A stretch of DNA of 64,000 nucleotides from Anaerolineales bacterium (GTDB lineage: Bacteria; Chloroflexota; Anaerolineae; Anaerolineales; Villigracilaceae), in NCBI GenBank assembly GCA_015075275.1, contig JABTUU010000001.1:1031216-1095215 (forward strand), given 5' to 3'. Each line of letters begins with the position of its first letter. Position 1 is the stretch's first letter. Under the pieces are notes generated by a model that saw only the letters and a program-made list of their open reading frames with translations, was not told where the DNA came from and made no database searches. Positions 999 to 9,817 of the stretch are shown here, piece by piece. The position numbers and the translations under genes were made by a program.

Positions 999-2513
999 AT
1001 GACTCAAACTATCAACGTACTCTTCCTCGCAGCGGAAGCCGAGCCATTCATAAAAGTGGGCGGTCTCGGAGATGTGGCGGGTTCGTTGCCGCGCGCCCTC
1101 AAGGAACTTTCCAACAACGAAGTTAAATTCGACATCCGCGTCGTCCTGCCGCTGCATGCGGCAATCAAAGCCGGCTCGCTGAAACCGGTCAGCATGTTCT
1201 CGTTGCAGCGCGGCGACGTTGAAGTTCAAGCGGAAGCCTACGAAGGATCGCTCGACGGATTGCCGGTCTACTTCATCAATGGCGATGCGATCCGCGCCAG
1301 CGGTTCGGTCTATTCGTCTAACAACAAACTTGACGCGGAAAAATACGTCTTCTTTTCGCTTGCGGCGCTCGAATTGCCGCGACAGATTAACTGGACGCCG
1401 GACGTCATTCACTGCAACGACTGGCACACCGCGCTCGCCGCGTACAGCAACCTAGTCGAGCGTTGGGGAGATAGAAAGCGCCGCATCGCTTCTATTGTTA
1501 CGATACACAATCTTCCATTTCTCGGTCCCGACATCGGCGAGAAACTTGAGTCGTATAATTTGCCGCTCGCCAGCACCGACCTGCCCCATTGGGCGCGCGT
1601 CTTGCCGATGCCGCTCGGCTTATGGGCATCAGACGCCATTGTCGCCGTCTCGCCCACCTATGCCGCTGAGATCCTGCACGAAGAATTCGGATGCGGACTG
1701 CAAGAATTCTTCCGAAATCGAACCGACACGCTGCATGGAATTCTCAATGGGATTGATACAGTCTCATTCGACCCACAAACTGATTCAGCCTTACAGGTCA
1801 ACTATAACGCCGACGACCTCCCCGCCCGCGCAAAAAACAAACTCGCATTGCAAGAATCGCTCGGCTTGCCCGTCAATCCAGACGTTCCCCTGCTCGGCAT
1901 AGTCTCGCGGATGGACCCGCAAAAAGGCATAGACATCGCCCTCAAGGGCTTGCGTATGTTGAAAAAGCAGAATTGGCAACTGGCGCTGCTTGGCGCCGGC
2001 GACCCTAAACTGGAAGCTGCAGCAAAAAAACTACAAGAAGATTTTCCCGATCGTATCCGCATTGAAACGCGCTTCGATACGAAACTAGCGCGGCGCATCT
2101 ACGCCGGCGCCGACCTGCTGCTTATGCCCTCGCGCTACGAACCCTGCGGCATCTCACAGATGATCGCTATGCGTTACGGTTGCGTTCCGCTTGTGCGCGC
2201 TGTCGGCGGATTGCACGATACCGTCACCGAAGCGGAAACCGGCTTCGTCTTCGTAAGCGCGAATGTCAAAGCATTTAATGAAGCGCTGCGCCGCGCATTG
2301 ACCCTGTTTCCAGATCGTGCAGCGTGGCAAACCCTCCAAAGGAACGGCATGGCGACCGATTTCGGCTGGCGCGCTTCGGCGCAACAATACGCCGACCTCT
2401 ACAAACGACTCGCCGAGGAATTGCGCGAATCATATCGCGCCGCCGAAAATTCCAAATGGAATGTTCGCGAAGATAAGACCAAACTTCAACCGATTTATGG
2501 AGGAGGCGAATGA
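999..2513 (+). CDS. glgA: Glycogen synthase (GT5)
   Basis: KVGGLGDV, IHCNDWH and PSRYEPCG motifs. Start moved to ATG 999 because the longer ORF runs through the tRNA. Confidence 0.93.
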   Translation: MTQTINVLFLAAEAEPFIKVGGLGDVAGSLPRALKELSNNEVKFDIRVVLPLHAAIKAGSLKPVSMFSLQRGDVEVQAEAYEGSLDGLPVYFINGDAIRASGSVYSSNNKLDAEKYVFFSLAALELPRQINWTPDVIHCNDWHTALAAYSNLVERWGDRKRRIASIVTIHNLPFLGPDIGEKLESYNLPLASTDLPHWARVLPMPLGLWASDAIVAVSPTYAAEILHEEFGCGLQEFFRNRTDTLHGILNGIDTVSFDPQTDSALQVNYNADDLPARAKNKLALQESLGLPVNPDVPLLGIVSRMDPQKGIDIALKGLRMLKKQNWQLALLGAGDPKLEAAAKKLQEDFPDRIRIETRFDTKLARRIYAGADLLLMPSRYEPCGISQMIAMRYGCVPLVRAVGGLHDTVTEAETGFVFVSANVKAFNEALRRALTLFPDRAAWQTLQRNGMATDFGWRASAQQYADLYKRLAEELRESYRAAENSKWNVREDKTKLQPIYGGGE

Positions 2514-3778
2514 AAACGCGCGCTATCATCCTCGCTGGCGGCGAAGGCTCGCGGCTCGGCGTATTAACCAAGAAACGCACTAAGCCTGCTGTTCCATTCG
2601 CCGGCAAATATCGCATTATTGACTTCGCCCTCTCGAACTGCGTCAACTCGGGAATCTTCGATTTAATGGTGCTCGCTCAATATCGCCCGCAATCGCTCGT
2701 CGAACATATCGGCTCAGGCGCGCCTTGGGACCTCAACCGCGACTTCACCGGCGGCGTTAAAATCCTTACGCCATACAAAGCCCGCAACAACGCGGGCTGG
2801 TTCGCCGGCACTGCGGACGCCGTGCAACAGAATTTCAGTTTCATTAAACAAGGCAACCCCGATCTTATCCTCATCCTCTCAGGCGATCACATCTACACGA
2901 TGGACTATGAACCGATGATTTCCTTCCATCTGGATCATCAAGCCGACGTAACCATCGGGACCATCAGCGTCCCGCTCGAAGAAGCGCCGCGCTTCGGCAT
3001 CCTCGCCACAGACAATAATTATCGCGTCAAATCGTTCGTCGAAAAGCCCCCCAATCCGCCAGGCCGACTCGCCAACATGGGCGTCTATCTCTTTAACCGC
3101 TCCGTGTTGGACAAATGCCTATGGGAAGACAGTCAGCGCAAAGGCTCTTCGCACGATTTCGGCAAAGATATCTTGCCGCGGCTTGTCAAGGCTAAAGCGC
3201 AAGTATTCGCCTTCCCTTACACCGGTTATTGGATGGACGTTGGCACGGTCCAATCTTACTGGCAAGCGCACATGGATTTACTCGCGCCGTCGCCCGCGCT
3301 TAAGCTCTATAACCGCGATTGGATCATCCATACGCGCACCGAAGAATACCCTCCCGCGCGCCTGCCCGCCAGAGCCGATATCTATGCCAGCATGATCTGT
3401 CACGGCTGCTTTATCGAAGCGGGCGCGCGCGTTGAAAGCAGCGTCCTCTCGCCGGGCGTCATAATTCGCGCCGGCGCAGTAGTGCGCGAATCGATCATCG
3501 CCACCAACGCCGTCATCGAAAGCGGAGCGGTCGTCGAGCGCGCCATACTGGATAAACGCGCCCACATCGGGCAGAACGCCCGCATCGGCTGGGGCGTAGC
3601 CGATCAAGATATTCGCATCGCACTTGTCGGCAAAAACAGCGAAGTGCCGCCCGGATACGTCGTCGAGCCGGAAGCCGAGATCGGCACCGATGTTGCCATA
3701 GGCGATTACAGCGAAACTGAAACAGTTGTCCGCGCCGGGCAGACTGTGGAGACAAAAAGGCTGGCAAATGAAGTTTGA
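2510..3778 (+). CDS. glgC: Glucose-1-phosphate adenylyltransferase
   Basis: LAGGEGSRL..KPAVPFAGKYRIIDF, GTADAV, FVEKP, YWMDVGT; overlaps the glgA stop. Confidence 0.93.
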   Translation: MKTRAIILAGGEGSRLGVLTKKRTKPAVPFAGKYRIIDFALSNCVNSGIFDLMVLAQYRPQSLVEHIGSGAPWDLNRDFTGGVKILTPYKARNNAGWFAGTADAVQQNFSFIKQGNPDLILILSGDHIYTMDYEPMISFHLDHQADVTIGTISVPLEEAPRFGILATDNNYRVKSFVEKPPNPPGRLANMGVYLFNRSVLDKCLWEDSQRKGSSHDFGKDILPRLVKAKAQVFAFPYTGYWMDVGTVQSYWQAHMDLLAPSPALKLYNRDWIIHTRTEEYPPARLPARADIYASMICHGCFIEAGARVESSVLSPGVIIRAGAVVRESIIATNAVIESGAVVERAILDKRAHIGQNARIGWGVADQDIRIALVGKNSEVPPGYVVEPEAEIGTDVAIGDYSETETVVRAGQTVETKRLANEV

Positions 3779-5273
3779 TCGCGCCGGCGGAATCCTTTTA
3801 CACCCCACAAGCCTTCCAAGCCCGTACGGCATCGGCGACCTCGGTCCGCAAGCCTATCGTTTTGCTGACTGGCTCGCATCGGCAAACTGCAAACTTTGGC
3901 AAATTCTTCCGCTCGGACCGACGGGCTATGGCGATTCGCCATATCAATGTTTTTCCGCCTTCGCAGGCAATCCTTATCTAATTAGCCCAGACGTTTTGAT
4001 TCAAGATGGACTGCTGACTCAAGACGACTTGCGCGACACGCCGAAATTTCCTGCCTCTCGCGTAAATTTCGGCGCGCTCATCCCGTGGAAGCTAAATCTA
4101 CTCTCCAAATCTTTCGCTCGCCTCTCCGCCTCGACCCAAGACCTCCGCAACGGCTTCGATTATTTTTGCGCACAAAACGCGGCATGGTTGAACGACTTTT
4201 CTCTCTTCATGGCGTTGAAAGATTCGCACGGCGGGAAAGCGTGGAATACATGGGAAGAACCGCTCCGCGCGCGCAAGCAATCTGCCTTAGACGAGGCGCG
4301 TAAAAAATTATCAAACGATATCCATCGCCATTCGTTCTACCAATTTCTATTCTTCCGCCAATGGGAAAGTTTGCGAAAATACGCTAACGAAAAGGGATTG
4401 AAAATTATCGGCGACATGCCGATCTTCGTCGCCTACGACAGCGCCGACGTGTGGTCGCGCCCTGAATTATTTTTTCTCGATGAAGCAGGCGCTCCGACCG
4501 TCGTTGCCGGCGTGCCGCCCGATCTTTTCTCGCCCACCGGTCAATTATGGGGCAACCCGCTCTACCGCTGGGATGCACACAAAGAGTCTGGCTACGCATG
4601 GTGGCTGGAGCGGGTCAAGTCCGCGCTGAAATCGTTAGATATTTTGCGGCTCGATCACTTTCGCGGCTTTGCGGGTTATTACGAAATCTCCGCTGGGGAC
4701 AAAACCGCCGAACATGGACATTGGGTTCCGGGTCCCGGTTCCGATTTCTTCCGCACGCTCAACGAAAAACTTAGCGGCGGCGCGGCAGCCGCCGACCTCA
4801 ACCTCCCCATCATCGCCGAAGACCTTGGTTTGATCACGCCCGACGTAACCGCCCTGCTCGAAGAATTCAAACTGCCGGGCATGAAAGTATTGCAATTCGG
4901 CTTTTCCGGTCCCGATAACCCCTTTCTGCCGCATAACTATCCCGAAAATTGCGCGGCATATACCGGCACGCACGACAACAACACCGCGCGAGGCTGGCTT
5001 GAAGCCGCTGACGAAAATGAGCGTGAATTCGCGCTGAAATATTTAGAATCGGATGGAAGCAACTTCGCGTGGGATTTGATCCGCGCGGTCTGGTCGTCGG
5101 TAGCCACGATCGCCATGACGCCTATGCAAGACGTGTTGAACTGCGGCGGCGAAGCGCGCATGAACTTCCCTTCCACGCTAGGCGGCAATTGGGAGTGGCG
5201 GATGAACGAAGGCGATTTGACCGAGTCGCTGGCTGAACGGCTGAAAGAATTGAATTGGTTGTATTTGAGATAA
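3768..5273 (+). CDS. malQ: 4-alpha-glucanotransferase (GH77 amylomaltase)
   Basis: GILLHPTSLP, WQILPLGPT, RLDHFRG, IIAEDLG and YTGTHDNNT motifs. Confidence 0.95.
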   Translation: MKFDRAGGILLHPTSLPSPYGIGDLGPQAYRFADWLASANCKLWQILPLGPTGYGDSPYQCFSAFAGNPYLISPDVLIQDGLLTQDDLRDTPKFPASRVNFGALIPWKLNLLSKSFARLSASTQDLRNGFDYFCAQNAAWLNDFSLFMALKDSHGGKAWNTWEEPLRARKQSALDEARKKLSNDIHRHSFYQFLFFRQWESLRKYANEKGLKIIGDMPIFVAYDSADVWSRPELFFLDEAGAPTVVAGVPPDLFSPTGQLWGNPLYRWDAHKESGYAWWLERVKSALKSLDILRLDHFRGFAGYYEISAGDKTAEHGHWVPGPGSDFFRTLNEKLSGGAAAADLNLPIIAEDLGLITPDVTALLEEFKLPGMKVLQFGFSGPDNPFLPHNYPENCAAYTGTHDNNTARGWLEAADENEREFALKYLESDGSNFAWDLIRAVWSSVATIAMTPMQDVLNCGGEARMNFPSTLGGNWEWRMNEGDLTESLAERLKELNWLYLR

Positions 5274-5396: not shown

Positions 5397-5426
5397 TTGA
5401 CTAATCTTTGTCTTAATTATTATAAT
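5397..5426 (+). promoter_or_regulatory. Putative sigma70 promoter for the sortase-fusion gene
   Basis: ttgact-N18-tataat in an AT-rich intergenic region; RBS aggag precedes ATG 5517. Confidence 0.5.
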
Positions 5427-5516
5427 CGCAGGTAAGGATGCTCTCAGGGACTCGCCGCCTCAACACCACTATTCCCCTCAAAGAATATCTTAAAATTTAT
5501 TTACCAGGAGAATCGG

Positions 5517-7511
5517 ATGAAACTATCAGTTGTTTTCAAGGCGTTTACAGCTTTAATGATTGCTATGCTGGTCTTTGGCGCATTGCCAACCAGCCAAGCG
5601 CGCGCCGCCACGTTATGCGTAGGAGGCGGCGGCTGTCACGCAACCATCCAAGACGCTATTAACGCCGCTTCCGCTGGCGATACGATTAACGTCAATCCGG
5701 GGACTTATAACGAAGATATTACGATCGGCAAATCGTTAACGCTCAGCGGCGCTGATTCCGCCACGACGATCATCGTCGGTCAAATTGGCGGACCCTCTGC
5801 TGCAACCGTGCGGATTCAGGCGAGCAACGTCACGGTTCAGGAATTTACGATCACTCGCGCTGGAAATAATCCGGTGGATTGGAATAACGTATCTCTCAAC
5901 TCGGCGGGAATTGCCATTCAAGGCGTGGCATATACCAACGCGCTAATTCTAAATAACATAATTACCGGCAACCGCACAGGCATTGATATCAACCTAAGCT
6001 CGGGACACACAATTACAGGAAACGACATTAGCGATAATCATACCGGTATGATTTTCCGTAACCAGACTGATAACTTGACCGTCATGTACAACAAAATCAT
6101 GAACAATCGGACAGTAGGCGTTCTTTTCTTGGACGCCAGCGGCGGCTCAAACATTCCGGTGCAATCCGCTATTGGCTCGATGTTTCGCGGCAACAATATT
6201 AGCGGCAATTGGTACGGTCAAGCCGTAGATCGTCAAACTGGCGGCGCTTTGCCGCTGCCCAACACGACAAACACAAAAGACTTTCAGGGCAATTGGTGGG
6301 GCGTTCCTACTCCGGTGGTAGCGATTCAAAATAGCGGCGAACCTCTCTATAGCTTACTTATGCCGGTCGCCTATGGCGGATCGGCAGTTCCGCCATCGCC
6401 TCAACCCGATATCCTTGGCTTAGCCGCAGAAAACATCCTCTACCTCTCATCGCCTTGCGACTACTATAGCTGCCCGTGGACTACGCCTTTATTAATTACC
6501 ACGACCGGCAGCGTCCCAGCGGACGGTGACATACTCAACGCAGGCATTTCGCAACTAACGGTTACTTTCAATAAAGGCGCCTTAGACGACGGTTCCGCGC
6601 AAGCCGCCAACAACGTCGTCAACTACATGCTGTATGAATATGGCGTCAACGCCTCATCCGATACAATCAACTGCATGAGCGGCATCGGCGGAGACGACGT
6701 CAATATCGCCGTCAATAGCGCAACCTACGATCCCATAACATTTACCGCCACAATTAATGTGAACAGCGGCGTCCCCCTGCCTGCTGGAAGATATCGCCTG
6801 TTGGTCTGCGGAACGACTTCCATTGAAGACAACGATAATAACGAATTGAATTGGGGCGCGATTGACAGCGCGGTTAACTTCACGGTACTGGCGACGCCGA
6901 CGCCCACCGCATCCCCGACGCCCACTGGCTCTCTCACGCCCACTGCATCCCCGACGCCTTCTGGCTCTCTCACGCCCGGTTCTCCCAGCCTCAATGCTTT
7001 CGCATTACCTGCTACCGGTTTCGCCGTAGGGCGAACAACTACGCTTTCATCGCCAAGCGTCGCCTATAATACGCTCGGCGACCTATGGCTTGAAATCCCA
7101 CGCTTGGGCGTAAAAATGCCCATCGTCGGCGTTCCGCAAGCCGTCAACGGAAACTGGGATGTCTCGTGGCTGGGCAACAACGCCGGCTGGCTGCAAGGGA
7201 CCGCATTCCCCACTTGGAGCGGCAATTCAGCGATCACCGGTCACGTTTGGGGCGCGGACAATAAAGCCGGCCCGTTCTTGTCCATTAATACGCTCTGGTA
7301 TGGCGACCGCATCAGCGTTCACGCTTGGGGACAGGAATACGTCTACGAAGTCCGTTCCGTATCGCAAGTAGAGCCTAATGCGACAACCTCCGCCTTCCAG
7401 CATAAGGATGTCCCTTGGCTGACGCTCATCACCTGCCGCTCTTACGATGAAGCGTCCGACGCCTATCGTTATCGCGTGTTGGTGCAAGCAGTGCAAGTGA
7501 CTATTAAATAG
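5517..7511 (+). CDS. Secreted right-handed beta-helix (NosD/pectin-lyase-like) protein with Ig-like domain, PT linker, LPATG motif and C-terminal sortase domain
   Basis: Signal peptide ending ARA; ATIQDAINAASAGDTINVNPGTY and Asn-ladder repeats; sortase His (ITGH), Cys (LITC) and Arg (YRYR); LPATG at 7005-7019. Confidence 0.85.
   Translation: MKLSVVFKAFTALMIAMLVFGALPTSQARAATLCVGGGGCHATIQDAINAASAGDTINVNPGTYNEDITIGKSLTLSGADSATTIIVGQIGGPSAATVRIQASNVTVQEFTITRAGNNPVDWNNVSLNSAGIAIQGVAYTNALILNNIITGNRTGIDINLSSGHTITGNDISDNHTGMIFRNQTDNLTVMYNKIMNNRTVGVLFLDASGGSNIPVQSAIGSMFRGNNISGNWYGQAVDRQTGGALPLPNTTNTKDFQGNWWGVPTPVVAIQNSGEPLYSLLMPVAYGGSAVPPSPQPDILGLAAENILYLSSPCDYYSCPWTTPLLITTTGSVPADGDILNAGISQLTVTFNKGALDDGSAQAANNVVNYMLYEYGVNASSDTINCMSGIGGDDVNIAVNSATYDPITFTATINVNSGVPLPAGRYRLLVCGTTSIEDNDNNELNWGAIDSAVNFTVLATPTPTASPTPTGSLTPTASPTPSGSLTPGSPSLNAFALPATGFAVGRTTTLSSPSVAYNTLGDLWLEIPRLGVKMPIVGVPQAVNGNWDVSWLGNNAGWLQGTAFPTWSGNSAITGHVWGADNKAGPFLSINTLWYGDRISVHAWGQEYVYEVRSVSQVEPNATTSAFQHKDVPWLTLITCRSYDEASDAYRYRVLVQAVQVTIK
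6900..6971 (+). repeat. 2 x 36-bp tandem repeat encoding a Thr/Pro/Ser linker
   Basis: acgcccaccgcatccccgacgcccactggctctctc followed by acgcccactgcatccccgacgccttctggctctctc. Confidence 0.9.
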
Positions 7512-7537
7512 ACTATCGTCTCTTACCGCTTAACATG

Positions 7538-7648: not shown

Positions 7649-9817
7649 TTACGGCGTGTAGTATTCGACAATCAACGCCGGTCGATTTCCTGCAGTTGGG
7701 GTATTGCCGCTATAAAAACGGATAAAATCCGCGCTGCCATTATCGTTATCGCCAAGGGCAAATCTCAAGCGAAATTGCGTTCGCCCTGTTTTATTGATGT
7801 AAGCGAGAATATCGCTCGTCCACACGCGTACATGCCAGCCATTCACTCGCGTAGACGGAAGCACGCCGACCGCATGCTTCGTTGCCGCGGCTTGAAAATC
7901 AATTAACTCAAGACCGGGATCGTTGCTAAACGCGCCGTTTCGCACATCCACAATCAACCTGCCGAGCGAAGTAAACGCATTCGTTCCAATCGTGCGGAAG
8001 AATCGAATCTTGAGCGTGACCTTCGTAATCACTGCGTTATCAGGAAGAGACGAAGTATCAAAAGACAAAAAGCCGCGATACTGGCGATCATCCGCATCAT
8101 CTCCCACACTGAACGCCCCCGTCGAACGATTGAGCATTCCGCCCGTAGAGCTATTCTCCGTCGCCTCCAACGTCCAACCGTCTTCCGCTCCAATCGAACG
8201 GAAAACGCTTCTACCCGGGACAGCCGAAGAGGCGCCAAAATACGCGCCCGGCGGGCTGATCGTAGCGCGAGTCGCGCCGGCGGCATCCGCGTCCACCGCA
8301 TTTGAAAGAATTCCCGGCGGAACGGAAGGCAAGGCAGGCGCATCGCTCCATATAAAATCAGGAATGGGATATGTCGTCGCAGTAAACACATTTCCGCCTG
8401 CCACAGGATGGAAGTCTCCGCCGGCAGGGTTGACTAGCTGCGGCTGGATGACGTTAATGGCGTTGTCAGCGCGTAATTGCGTTTCATTGCAAGTTGGGTT
8501 CGCAGGACGACATCCTTCACTCGAATCTTCAATTCCCAGAGGATGACCTGCCGGCCCGTTCCAGATGATGTTGCCGCGAATTCTTAAATTCACATCCGTT
8601 TTTGCGGGATTGGGAATATTCGAACCGCCCGCAGGCGTGCGCGGTCCATAAATAGCAAAATGCTGCCACGCGCTCTGGAAGCCGGCCGGGTTATAAACAA
8701 TATTATTGTAGATATACACATTGCGGTCAGGGATAGGCTCTTCGTCTCCAATAATATTTCTGCCCCATCCTCCCGCAAGCCGATTCGCATTGCATTGCGC
8801 AGCGTCGCCATCGCAAGAGCGCCCGCCAAAAACAACCTCGATCGCATGGCTGCGGCTGCCCACGCGATAGCAAGTGTTGTAAGCCATCAAGGTGTTATAG
8901 CCGCCGTTGACGCCAAAACACGCTCCTTCGACGTCGTGGATAACGTTATTGACAAATTTGACGTCATACGTTTCGTAATGCAGCCAAGGCGAGGACATGT
9001 ATTCAAACCCTGTGCCTTGCCCAGCGGTGAATCCGCCTGTGCCGCAGTTGTAAATAACATTCCCTTCCACGCGGATATAGGCTGAGCCGCCCTTCACATA
9101 GGCGCACCAGTCATCGCCGTCGTGGATTTTATTTTTTACAATATGACCATATTGCACAGATACGAAGTCAATTACATTTTCGTACGAGCCCGAAAGGTCG
9201 CTGTTTTCTATATAGAGATATTGCGACTGATTAACTTTAACGGTTTCATGCGCATCGCCATTCCCTCTGAAATCTACGTTGCGCAACAACAAATGATCGC
9301 ACAGCTCGCAATGCAATACGTCGCCGTTGACATTAATGGTCAATGATTCGATATAGAGATAGCGCGTATCGTAAATATTCAAATCGCCGAGCAAAACGAT
9401 CTGCCCGCGCGCCCCATTGCCGCGTATCCAAACAGGAGCATCATATGCGCCATAGCGCGACTCTAAGTAAACTGGAATGGAAGATTCGGGATAGCTGCCC
9501 GGCTGGAGATTAATGCGCACGCCTTCGTTCAACACAACGTTCATCGGAACGTCGTTCCATGCGGCGCTGATGGTGCGAAAGGCGGCAGCGGGCGAAGCGC
9601 CGTCATTGGCGTCGTTTCCATTAACGGGGTCCACCCAGATATCGCGCAAAGAGGGGCTTCCAGTCGCATATAACTCATAAGCAGGCGCGCGAGCCTCGAT
9701 GGATTCTCCGGCTTGGGCTGGCGCAGCCTGCGCAGAATCTGTGCGGGAAGTAAAGACAGAAAGAACAAGAATTCCAATAGAAAAAGTTGCTTTCATCAAG
9801 CGTGTCAGGGTCGGCAT
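7649..9817 (-). CDS. Secreted right-handed beta-helix protein with C-terminal DNRLRE-like domain
   Basis: Signal peptide; IWVDPVNGNDANDGASPAAAFRTI (DUF1565-like start); parallel beta-helix repeats; C-terminal YRGFLSFDTSSLPDNAVITKVTLKIR. Confidence 0.7.
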   Translation of the reverse strand: MPTLTRLMKATFSIGILVLSVFTSRTDSAQAAPAQAGESIEARAPAYELYATGSPSLRDIWVDPVNGNDANDGASPAAAFRTISAAWNDVPMNVVLNEGVRINLQPGSYPESSIPVYLESRYGAYDAPVWIRGNGARGQIVLLGDLNIYDTRYLYIESLTINVNGDVLHCELCDHLLLRNVDFRGNGDAHETVKVNQSQYLYIENSDLSGSYENVIDFVSVQYGHIVKNKIHDGDDWCAYVKGGSAYIRVEGNVIYNCGTGGFTAGQGTGFEYMSSPWLHYETYDVKFVNNVIHDVEGACFGVNGGYNTLMAYNTCYRVGSRSHAIEVVFGGRSCDGDAAQCNANRLAGGWGRNIIGDEEPIPDRNVYIYNNIVYNPAGFQSAWQHFAIYGPRTPAGGSNIPNPAKTDVNLRIRGNIIWNGPAGHPLGIEDSSEGCRPANPTCNETQLRADNAINVIQPQLVNPAGGDFHPVAGGNVFTATTYPIPDFIWSDAPALPSVPPGILSNAVDADAAGATRATISPPGAYFGASSAVPGRSVFRSIGAEDGWTLEATENSSTGGMLNRSTGAFSVGDDADDRQYRGFLSFDTSSLPDNAVITKVTLKIRFFRTIGTNAFTSLGRLIVDVRNGAFSNDPGLELIDFQAAATKHAVGVLPSTRVNGWHVRVWTSDILAYINKTGRTQFRLRFALGDNDNGSADFIRFYSGNTPTAGNRPALIVEYYTP

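Follow-up and report, generated by a model that had tools for sequence, protein, structure and literature searches.

The 64,000-nucleotide stretch of DNA analysed here (the window; Anaerolineales bacterium from sludge, assembly GCA_015075275.1, contig JABTUU010000001.1, positions 1,031,216 to 1,095,215 of the forward strand) contains an open reading frame (ORF) for a predicted secreted protein of 664 residues, in which a sortase substrate and a sortase are joined in one polypeptide. From the N- to the C-terminus, a signal peptide, a beta-helix, an Ig-like domain, a Pro/Thr linker, an LPATG motif and a sortase domain with its catalytic His, Cys and Arg were found by Pfam, AlphaFold2 and motif scan (Table 1). 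Every element that the preliminary description, made from the DNA letters, had observed is confirmed. The last 168 residues, which comprise the LPATG, a segment of 23 residues and the sortase domain, are referred to as the autosortase.

Classical sortases are separate, membrane-anchored enzymes, and their substrates carry an LPXTG motif followed by a transmembrane segment and a basic tail. Two hallmarks of such a substrate, the signal peptide and the LPXTG, are both present in the window protein. The hydrophobic segment and positively charged C-terminal tail after the motif are absent, here and across the family. According to Kyte-Doolittle hydropathy (19-residue window), the only hydrophobic stretch of the protein is residues 1-28, which belong to the signal peptide, and the 163 residues following the LPATG contain no hydrophobic stretch, transmembrane segment or basic tail. 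The sortase therefore has no membrane anchor and the LPATG no classical tail, in agreement with what had been noted before. The LPATG is the sole such motif in the whole protein, and the sortase domain is followed by four residues and the stop codon.

Table 1. Features of the fusion gene and its product in the window (positions in nucleotides, position 1 being the first letter of the window)
Feature	Position	Strand	Evidence
Promoter-like site TTGACT-18-TATAAT, 11/12 matches	5397..5426	+	consensus scan; consensus match only
Shine-Dalgarno-like GGAG, 6 nucleotides 5' of the ATG	5507..5510	+	read off the sequence
Complete ORF, 664 residues, ATG start	5517..7511	+	ORF list, Pfam, hydropathy
Sec-type signal peptide, residues 1-30	5517..5606	+	hydropathy; predicted signal peptidase I site A28-R29-A30/A31
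Passenger: right-handed parallel beta-helix (NosD / Beta_helix), residues 44-231	5646..6209	+	Pfam
Ig-like beta-sandwich, about residues 338-457, with 'YRLLVCGTTSI' motif	6528..6887	+	AlphaFold2 (pLDDT 86-93, all-beta)
Pro/Thr/Ser-rich linker, residues 460-496, sequence not conserved	6894..7004	+	composition; pLDDT <50
LPATG sorting motif, residues 497-501; predicted scissile bond T500/G501	7005..7019	+	motif scan
Conserved post-motif segment, residues 502-524 (23 residues), consensus F-A-P-G/N-R-V-T-x-L-P-x-Q-P...Y	7020..7088	+	family column statistics
Sortase catalytic domain, residues 525-660	7089..7496	+	PF04203, TIGR01076, AlphaFold2, Foldseek
Catalytic His576 codon (ITGH576)	7242..7244	+	invariant alignment column
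Catalytic Cys640 codon (TLITC640)	7434..7436	+	invariant alignment column
Catalytic Arg653 codon (YR653)	7473..7475	+	invariant alignment column

The signal peptidase site was called by eye following the AXA rule. The beta-helix probably extends past the residues covered by the Pfam match. No Pfam Ig model matched the Ig-like domain, and a sequence search of the PDB with the passenger (residues 31-458) gave no match. At least 40 independent assembly blocks contain a call for the identical 664-residue product.

The sortase domain was recognised by the generic sortase models PF04203 (76.9 bits, cutoff 26.6) and TIGR01076 (40.9 bits, cutoff 39.35), whereas the class-specific NCBIfam models all fell below their cutoffs. 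The best-scoring of these was nonetheless the class F model NF033748 (48.1 bits against a cutoff of 166), followed by the models for class C (NF033745, 42.7 against 160), class E (32.5 against 160) and class D (28.6 against 165). Class F stands for stand-alone enzymes with an N-terminal membrane anchor, while the present domain lies at the C-terminus of a secreted protein. The nearest entries in a sequence search of the PDB were class C pilus sortases (6ixz, 2xwg, 2w1j; E about 3e-14), then class E. In the AlphaFold2 model the sortase barrel is predicted with a predicted local distance difference test (pLDDT) value above 90. A Foldseek search with this model gave 137 PDB matches at E <= 0.001; all 50 among the matches listed are sortases, and the top ones are of class C (E = 7e-11, TM-score about 0.62-0.65). 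Class C sortases, the closest solved relatives by both sequence and fold, possess an N-terminal extension (lid) that reaches the active site. Unlike them, the window protein carries a genuine LPxTG in that extension, and the class C hallmark DP[WFY] of the lid occurs nowhere in it. Neither the transmembrane helices or membrane anchors nor the pilin gene cluster typical of class C were found by hydropathy, among the neighbours in the window or in 80 related loci. We treat the family as a clade of its own within the sortase superfamily, defined by its fused motif. In public databases its members are named 'sortase', 'class F sortase, partial', 'LPXTG-site transpeptidase family protein' or 'Ig-like domain-containing protein'.

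Relatives of the cassette were collected in three ways. A search with residues 491-664 returned 374 relatives at E < 1e-5. Scanning one genome per species (GTDB) with a cassette profile gave at least 575 confirmed loci, the best 80 of which all lie in Anaerolineae or in other metagenome-assembled genomes (MAGs) labelled Chloroflexota. Most genomes with the cassette are Anaerolineae. A hidden Markov model (HMM) search of 1.84 billion cluster representatives retrieved 1,428 clusters (50% identity) at E <= 1e-30.

The position of the motif relative to the enzyme was conserved in all three collections. Among the best 120 of the 374 relatives, nearly all that are long enough carry [LIV]PxTG 28-30 residues before the first strand, 'LxIPxL'. 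With GNS..H as anchor, 136 of the 144 relatives whose upstream sequence is long enough have [LIVMN]Px[TS]G 70-74 residues before it. Among the best 150 clusters, 134 new representatives contained the anchor, and 128 of these have [LIVM]Px[TS]G at that distance. The genome loci gave the same picture (66/70 loci with the anchor, out of the best 80), so that about 95% of the members have [LIVM]PxTG 70-74 residues before GNS..H. The chance expectation of the motif, as a rough estimate made by hand and not computed by a tool, is about 1e-4 per position; judged from this comparison, the LPxTG at fixed spacing is not due to chance. The preliminary description had proposed to survey whether LPxTG is kept at a fixed distance before sortase domains with variable passengers, and this survey came out clearly in favour of its proposal.

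Column statistics of 136 members delimit the conserved module. At the first position of the motif, Leu (78%) is replaced by Ile (16%) or Val (4%), the P, T and G are each 100% conserved, and the x position is variable (A 40%, G 12%, E 11%, D 10%, S 9%, V 6%). Four fixed positions and one free position correspond to the signature of a sortase substrate. The ten positions preceding the Leu are unconserved A, T, S, P or G, and conservation begins exactly at the Leu. The motif is followed by F (97%), A (78%), P (84%), G/N, R, V, T (89%), x, L (92%), P, x, Q (82%) and P, and the length of this post-motif segment is constant to within 2 residues across the family.

Six of the 134 representatives have near-variants such as APETG, QPRTG, TPDTG or LPAAG, and four of the 70 loci deviate, namely the degenerate variants L012 (IPAIG) and L055 (NPRTG) and the frameshifted L024 and L064. 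The latter two have short, apparently motif-less sortase ORFs with a frameshift just upstream of the conserved segment, and both contigs come from 'MFD' MAG assemblies; we suspect sequencing errors rather than real pseudogenes.

Stand-alone sortases of 169 residues starting at the LPxTG were considered as a separate form and rejected. Among the 120 listed relatives, 14 are short (161-177 residues, mostly 169-170) and start exactly at the motif. The two that were checked (P0055 and P0039; L085:1546-2055, L086:431-940, L087:5001-5510) are truncations made by the gene caller: they start at a TTG (Leu) codon inside a frame which is open upstream and runs through Pro/Thr repeats into a passenger of the Ice_binding type. 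Such truncation at the motif hides the fusion architecture in public annotation.

In the best 150 of the 1,428 clusters the cassette always occupies the extreme C-terminus, in proteins of 224-4,130 residues, and at the 70 loci with GNS..H it lies at the end of stop-to-stop ORFs that range from 201 to more than 2,170 codons. In the cluster representatives the stop codon follows GNS..H after only 94-108 residues, which leaves no room for a transmembrane segment or a tail. Complete relatives mostly start with Sec-type signal peptides and show no later transmembrane-like segment.

In contrast to the cassette, the passengers are highly variable. Pfam families, Sortase included, numbered 50 in 37 genome-derived members and 51 in 67 full-length members from databases. 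They include DUF11, DUF7507, DUF7933, SpaA-type, SdrD_B, Big/Ig families, TIG, FG-GAP, Chlam_PMP and Ice_binding domains, as well as subtilases with pro-domains, LTD with endonuclease/phosphatase domains (nucleases), pectinesterase and beta-helices. Passengers of these kinds form the repertoire of wall-anchored adhesins and exo-enzymes of Gram-positive bacteria, which classical sortases anchor.

The Ig-like domain was present just before the Pro/Thr linker in the majority consensus of the alignments of 37 (A2) and 67 (A4) relatives. Its signatures are 'NY.LV..G...', 'Y.L.VCGTTSI' and 'LN.G.D..F'; the second, taken as a strict regular expression, occurs in 67 of 189 members, 29-66 residues from the LPxTG, with one outlier at 127. 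Given this variable distance, the domain often accompanies the cassette but does not belong to the fixed module. Possibly it represents an undescribed domain of the Big type that travels with the cassette.

The surroundings of the 80 loci were compared by all-against-all BLAST of 1,232 ORFs, and no partner gene conserved within 6 kb on either side was found; the sole recurrent non-sortase cluster was the sortase domain's own shadow ORF on the antisense strand. A scan of the whole window (64 kb) detected neither a second sortase nor a further credible LPxTG protein. Likewise, in the 887 kb made up of the 80 loci and the window, there was no credible ORF of the classical type with LPxTG, hydrophobic segment and tail, the two matches being short, non-hydrophobic, spurious ORFs. 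Of the ORFs with at least 120 codons at the 80 loci, 95 fall into the cluster of the cassette family, and 78 of these end in a TLxTC-type C-terminus. Several MAGs hold two or three separate loci (e.g. L002, L013 and L073 in CAZRCR01). A genome thus seems to contain several paralogues that differ in their passengers, and some of these may be adjacent.

Transcription of the fusion gene was followed in seven metatranscriptome runs (sludge, bioreactor, wastewater), in which the gene was detected at 94-98% of the sampled words. RNA contigs of 2,047-2,126 nucleotides span the whole ORF in one piece and reach to 7511-7521, with a depth clearly above that of the flanks. They start at 5443 (two runs), 5472 (one run) and 5396 (another run). 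This fits a monocistronic mRNA with its start shortly downstream of the promoter-like site. On the + strand, the sequence directly 3' of the stop codon showed no terminator-like hairpin. The RNA contigs also revealed six strain differences in the sortase part (window positions 7397-7481), all of them synonymous and in third positions; four fall in the consecutive codons 652-655, including that of Arg653 (CGC to CGT). Along with the His, Cys and Arg columns, which are invariant in four alignments (30, 37, 67 and 104 relatives), these variants argue that selection maintains the sortase as an active enzyme.

The conserved coupling of motif and enzyme, the C-terminal position, the lack of an anchor and the lack of a partner gene are most simply read as a self-contained unit. 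That motif and enzyme together form one functional sorting cassette, which would replace the transmembrane segment and basic tail of classical substrates, is well supported by these comparisons. The preliminary description had gone further and proposed a self-sorting module that processes itself and ligates its own passenger to a wall or surface acceptor. The comparative evidence bears out the functional unit, while we infer cleavage, the intramolecular mode and the acceptor.

With a probability of roughly 0.55, the fused sortase cuts its motif at the Thr-Gly bond, presumably in cis, and hands the passenger over to an amine of the envelope, the enzyme itself being the leaving group. The protein would be exported by the Sec pathway and lose its signal peptide, and the beta-helix and Ig-like passenger would fold outside the cell, with the Pro/Thr linker as a stalk. 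The sortase, by means of His576, Cys640 and Arg653, would then bind its own LPATG, located 28 residues before the first strand, most likely intramolecularly. A cut between Thr500 and Gly501 would leave the passenger as a thioester on Cys640. Resolution of this thioester by an envelope amine, most likely that of a peptidoglycan stem peptide or of the lipid II precursor, would attach the passenger covalently, and the sortase domain of about 18 kDa, then starting at Gly501, would leave in place of the classical transmembrane segment and tail. Each cargo would thus come with an enzyme of its own that probably turns over only once, and a membrane-anchored sortase would not be needed. The fixed length and sequence between motif and first strand, as opposed to the free linker upstream (29-66 residues), argue for a geometric constraint such as a reaction in cis would impose.

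Since Gly501 of the leaving group would still be tethered close to the thioester, the protein might pass into a reversible 'charged' state. In an extended and more tentative form of the proposal, to which we give somewhat less than even odds, Anaerolineae would anchor their surface proteome by single-use autosortases fused to the substrate instead of by membrane-bound sortases, and each protein would remain in a reversible, 'charged' peptide/thioester equilibrium until its passenger is irreversibly transferred to an envelope amine. Standard predictors, which seek an LPXTG only in the last ~50 residues, would miss such a system.

Several points limit the case for self-anchoring in cis. Two AlphaFold2 models were calculated, one of the cassette alone (30 sequences) and one of the Ig-like domain, linker and cassette (104 sequences), and in both of them the LPATG and the next ~16-23 residues have pLDDT values below 50 and are not docked in the active-site groove, which speaks neither for nor against binding in cis. 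Sequence alone cannot separate action in cis from action in trans. For an enzyme that lacks a membrane anchor, the route to lipid II is hard to see. Finally, the 887 kb sampled, which are centred on the fusions, add up to roughly one quarter of a single genome, so that membrane-anchored sortases or classical substrates may lie elsewhere in the genomes.

The undocked motif would also suit a reaction in trans, in which each sortase would act on the LPxTG of a second molecule and link that molecule to the free N-terminus or a lysine of a neighbouring protein. Much as pilins are joined by class C sortases, this would give fibres or a covalently cross-linked layer at the surface. The nearest solved structures and sequences are indeed pilus-polymerising class C sortases, several passengers are of SpaA-like, DUF7933 or SdrD_B pilin/adhesin type, and the 95 family ORFs at the 80 loci include tandem paralogues at some of them. 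However, the passengers, with enzymes and beta-helices among them, share no domain that could carry an acceptor lysine, and the majority consensus of the frequently conserved Ig-like domain is free of Lys (alignment of 67). Moreover, the fixed spacing between motif and enzyme is not needed for a reaction in trans, no conserved pilin-type cluster or partner accompanies the 80 loci, and both the class C model score far below its cutoff and the lack of the DP[WFY] lid set the domain apart from the pilus sortases. We regard this explanation as unlikely, and polymerisation, which had been offered as an option before, gained no positive support from these very heterogeneous passengers.

It is likewise improbable, in our opinion, that the sortase is a C-terminal pro-domain (for folding, transient retention or quality control of secretion, for example) that cuts itself off at the Thr-Gly bond by hydrolysis and frees the passenger. 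Sortases slowly hydrolyse their acyl intermediate when no nucleophile is present. Some passengers are hydrolases of the secreted type (subtilases, nucleases), the enzyme lacks an anchor that would take it to lipid II, and engineered sortase fusions have been used in just this way (PMC2901362). Yet a transpeptidase of 170 residues would be a costly and slow tool for one cut, adhesin and wall-protein domains dominate among the passengers, the Pro/Thr stalk resembles wall-spanning regions, and the strict conservation of the whole LPxTG and of its P' side matches substrates of transpeptidation. An uncleaved LPxTG, acting as a pseudo-substrate or lid that inhibits the sortase while the passenger tethers or targets the enzyme to a place at the surface where other proteins are processed, appears quite improbable. 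The motif does sit in an N-terminal extension of the domain, where class C sortases have a lid in the active site; known lids, however, do not serve as genuine substrates, whereas the present family shows 100% conservation of the scissile T and G next to an intact triad and has no DP[WFY]. It is also hard to see upwards of 50 unrelated families of passengers, with enzymes among them, as targeting devices, and the 887 kb sampled contained no classical substrates on which such an enzyme could act. The probability that the fusion is an artefact of mis-assembly, of read-through of two genes or of a decaying pseudogene is negligible. The 169-residue calls in public data and the two frameshifted loci might suggest it, but the former are truncations at a TTG within an uninterrupted ORF, and the latter both belong to 'MFD' assemblies where sequencing error is suspected. 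As far as sequence data reach, this explanation is refuted by the same ORF in at least 40 independent assembly blocks, by single RNA contigs covering it and by the recurrence of the architecture at no fewer than 575 loci and in 1,428 clusters.

Compared to classical sortase/LPXTG sorting (classes A, C, E and F; MEROPS C60), the autosortase shares the PF04203 domain, the His-Cys-Arg triad, the TLxTC signature and the pentapeptide motif, and the proteins that carry it share the kinds of cargo domains, the N-terminal signal peptide and the Pro-rich stalk before the motif. It differs in that enzyme and substrate are one polypeptide in a 1:1 ratio, neither of them membrane-anchored, with the enzyme in the place of the hydrophobic segment and tail. 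C-terminal tags which are carried by many unrelated cargos and removed during attachment to the envelope are likewise known from the T9SS CTD/PorU, PEP-CTERM/exosortase and archaeosortase systems; there the tag is passive and the enzyme a separate membrane protein, whereas here the tag is the enzyme. C-terminal autoprocessing of the Hedgehog/Hint type follows a like logic, with a single-use domain that cuts itself off via a (thio)ester and hands the cargo to a nucleophile. Its fold and chemistry are unrelated, so that this is an analogy and not homology.

The BISOP tag, a man-made sortase fusion, reportedly has the reverse order, with the sortase N-terminal to the motif. An engineered sortase and LPXTG in one chain cleave themselves at the motif and have been applied to protein purification (e.g. 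BISOP, PMC2901362), which indicates that the chemistry is feasible within a single polypeptide. Tags of this type serve hydrolytic or Gly-driven release rather than sorting in the cell. No description of a natural sortase-LPXTG fusion was found in open-access papers or bioRxiv, most subscription journals lying outside this coverage; only engineered fusions and classical systems came up. The view of the preliminary description that this architecture has no functional characterisation agrees with the same literature. A review of 2021 (PMC8225981) and a paper of 2026 (PMC13251363) treat sortases only as separate enzymes, and according to the latter the roles of class F sortases remain unknown. 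A survey of 2025 sought sortase motifs only in the last 50 residues (PMC12617251) and would for that reason have missed the cassette family. The parts of the autosortase, a sortase domain and an LPXTG, are known and their arrangement is not, i.e. a 1:1 fusion with no anchor in which the enzyme forms the tail of the sorting signal. This anchor-free cassette closes well above 1,000 different surface proteins, and the data suggest an undescribed self-anchoring system.

If true, this would change the textbook rule of separate membrane-anchored sortases and membrane-held substrates and introduce a new logic of cell-surface sorting. Filamentous Anaerolineae are a large and ecologically dominant group, and the system would explain how those of digesters, wastewater sludge, sediments and soils display hundreds of adhesins and exo-enzymes. 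For annotation, it would mean that a whole class of sortase substrates is overlooked at present, the genes often being cut at the motif by gene callers. A compact, natural module of ~168 residues that cleaves and ligates itself, possibly with a useful nucleophile specificity, would furthermore be of interest for protein engineering as a genetically encoded, self-conjugating protein tag.

The neighbours of the fusion gene in the window are glgC, malQ, msrB, a ybaK-like gene and a convergent gene for a secreted beta-helix protein. The latter (7649-9817, - strand) encodes 722 residues. A hydrophobic, signal-like stretch lies at the N-terminus of this protein, which also contains a beta-helix and has neither an LPxTG nor a sortase cassette; its C-terminal ~390 residues gave no Pfam match. 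Two secreted beta-helix proteins are thus encoded tail to tail, with the cassette on only one of them. Upstream of the fusion gene, the region 2510-5273 holds glycogen/maltodextrin genes for a GlgC-like nucleotidyl transferase and a GH77 4-alpha-glucanotransferase. As mechanically called, these two ORFs overlap by ~50 nucleotides, while public calls start the second gene later (501 residues).

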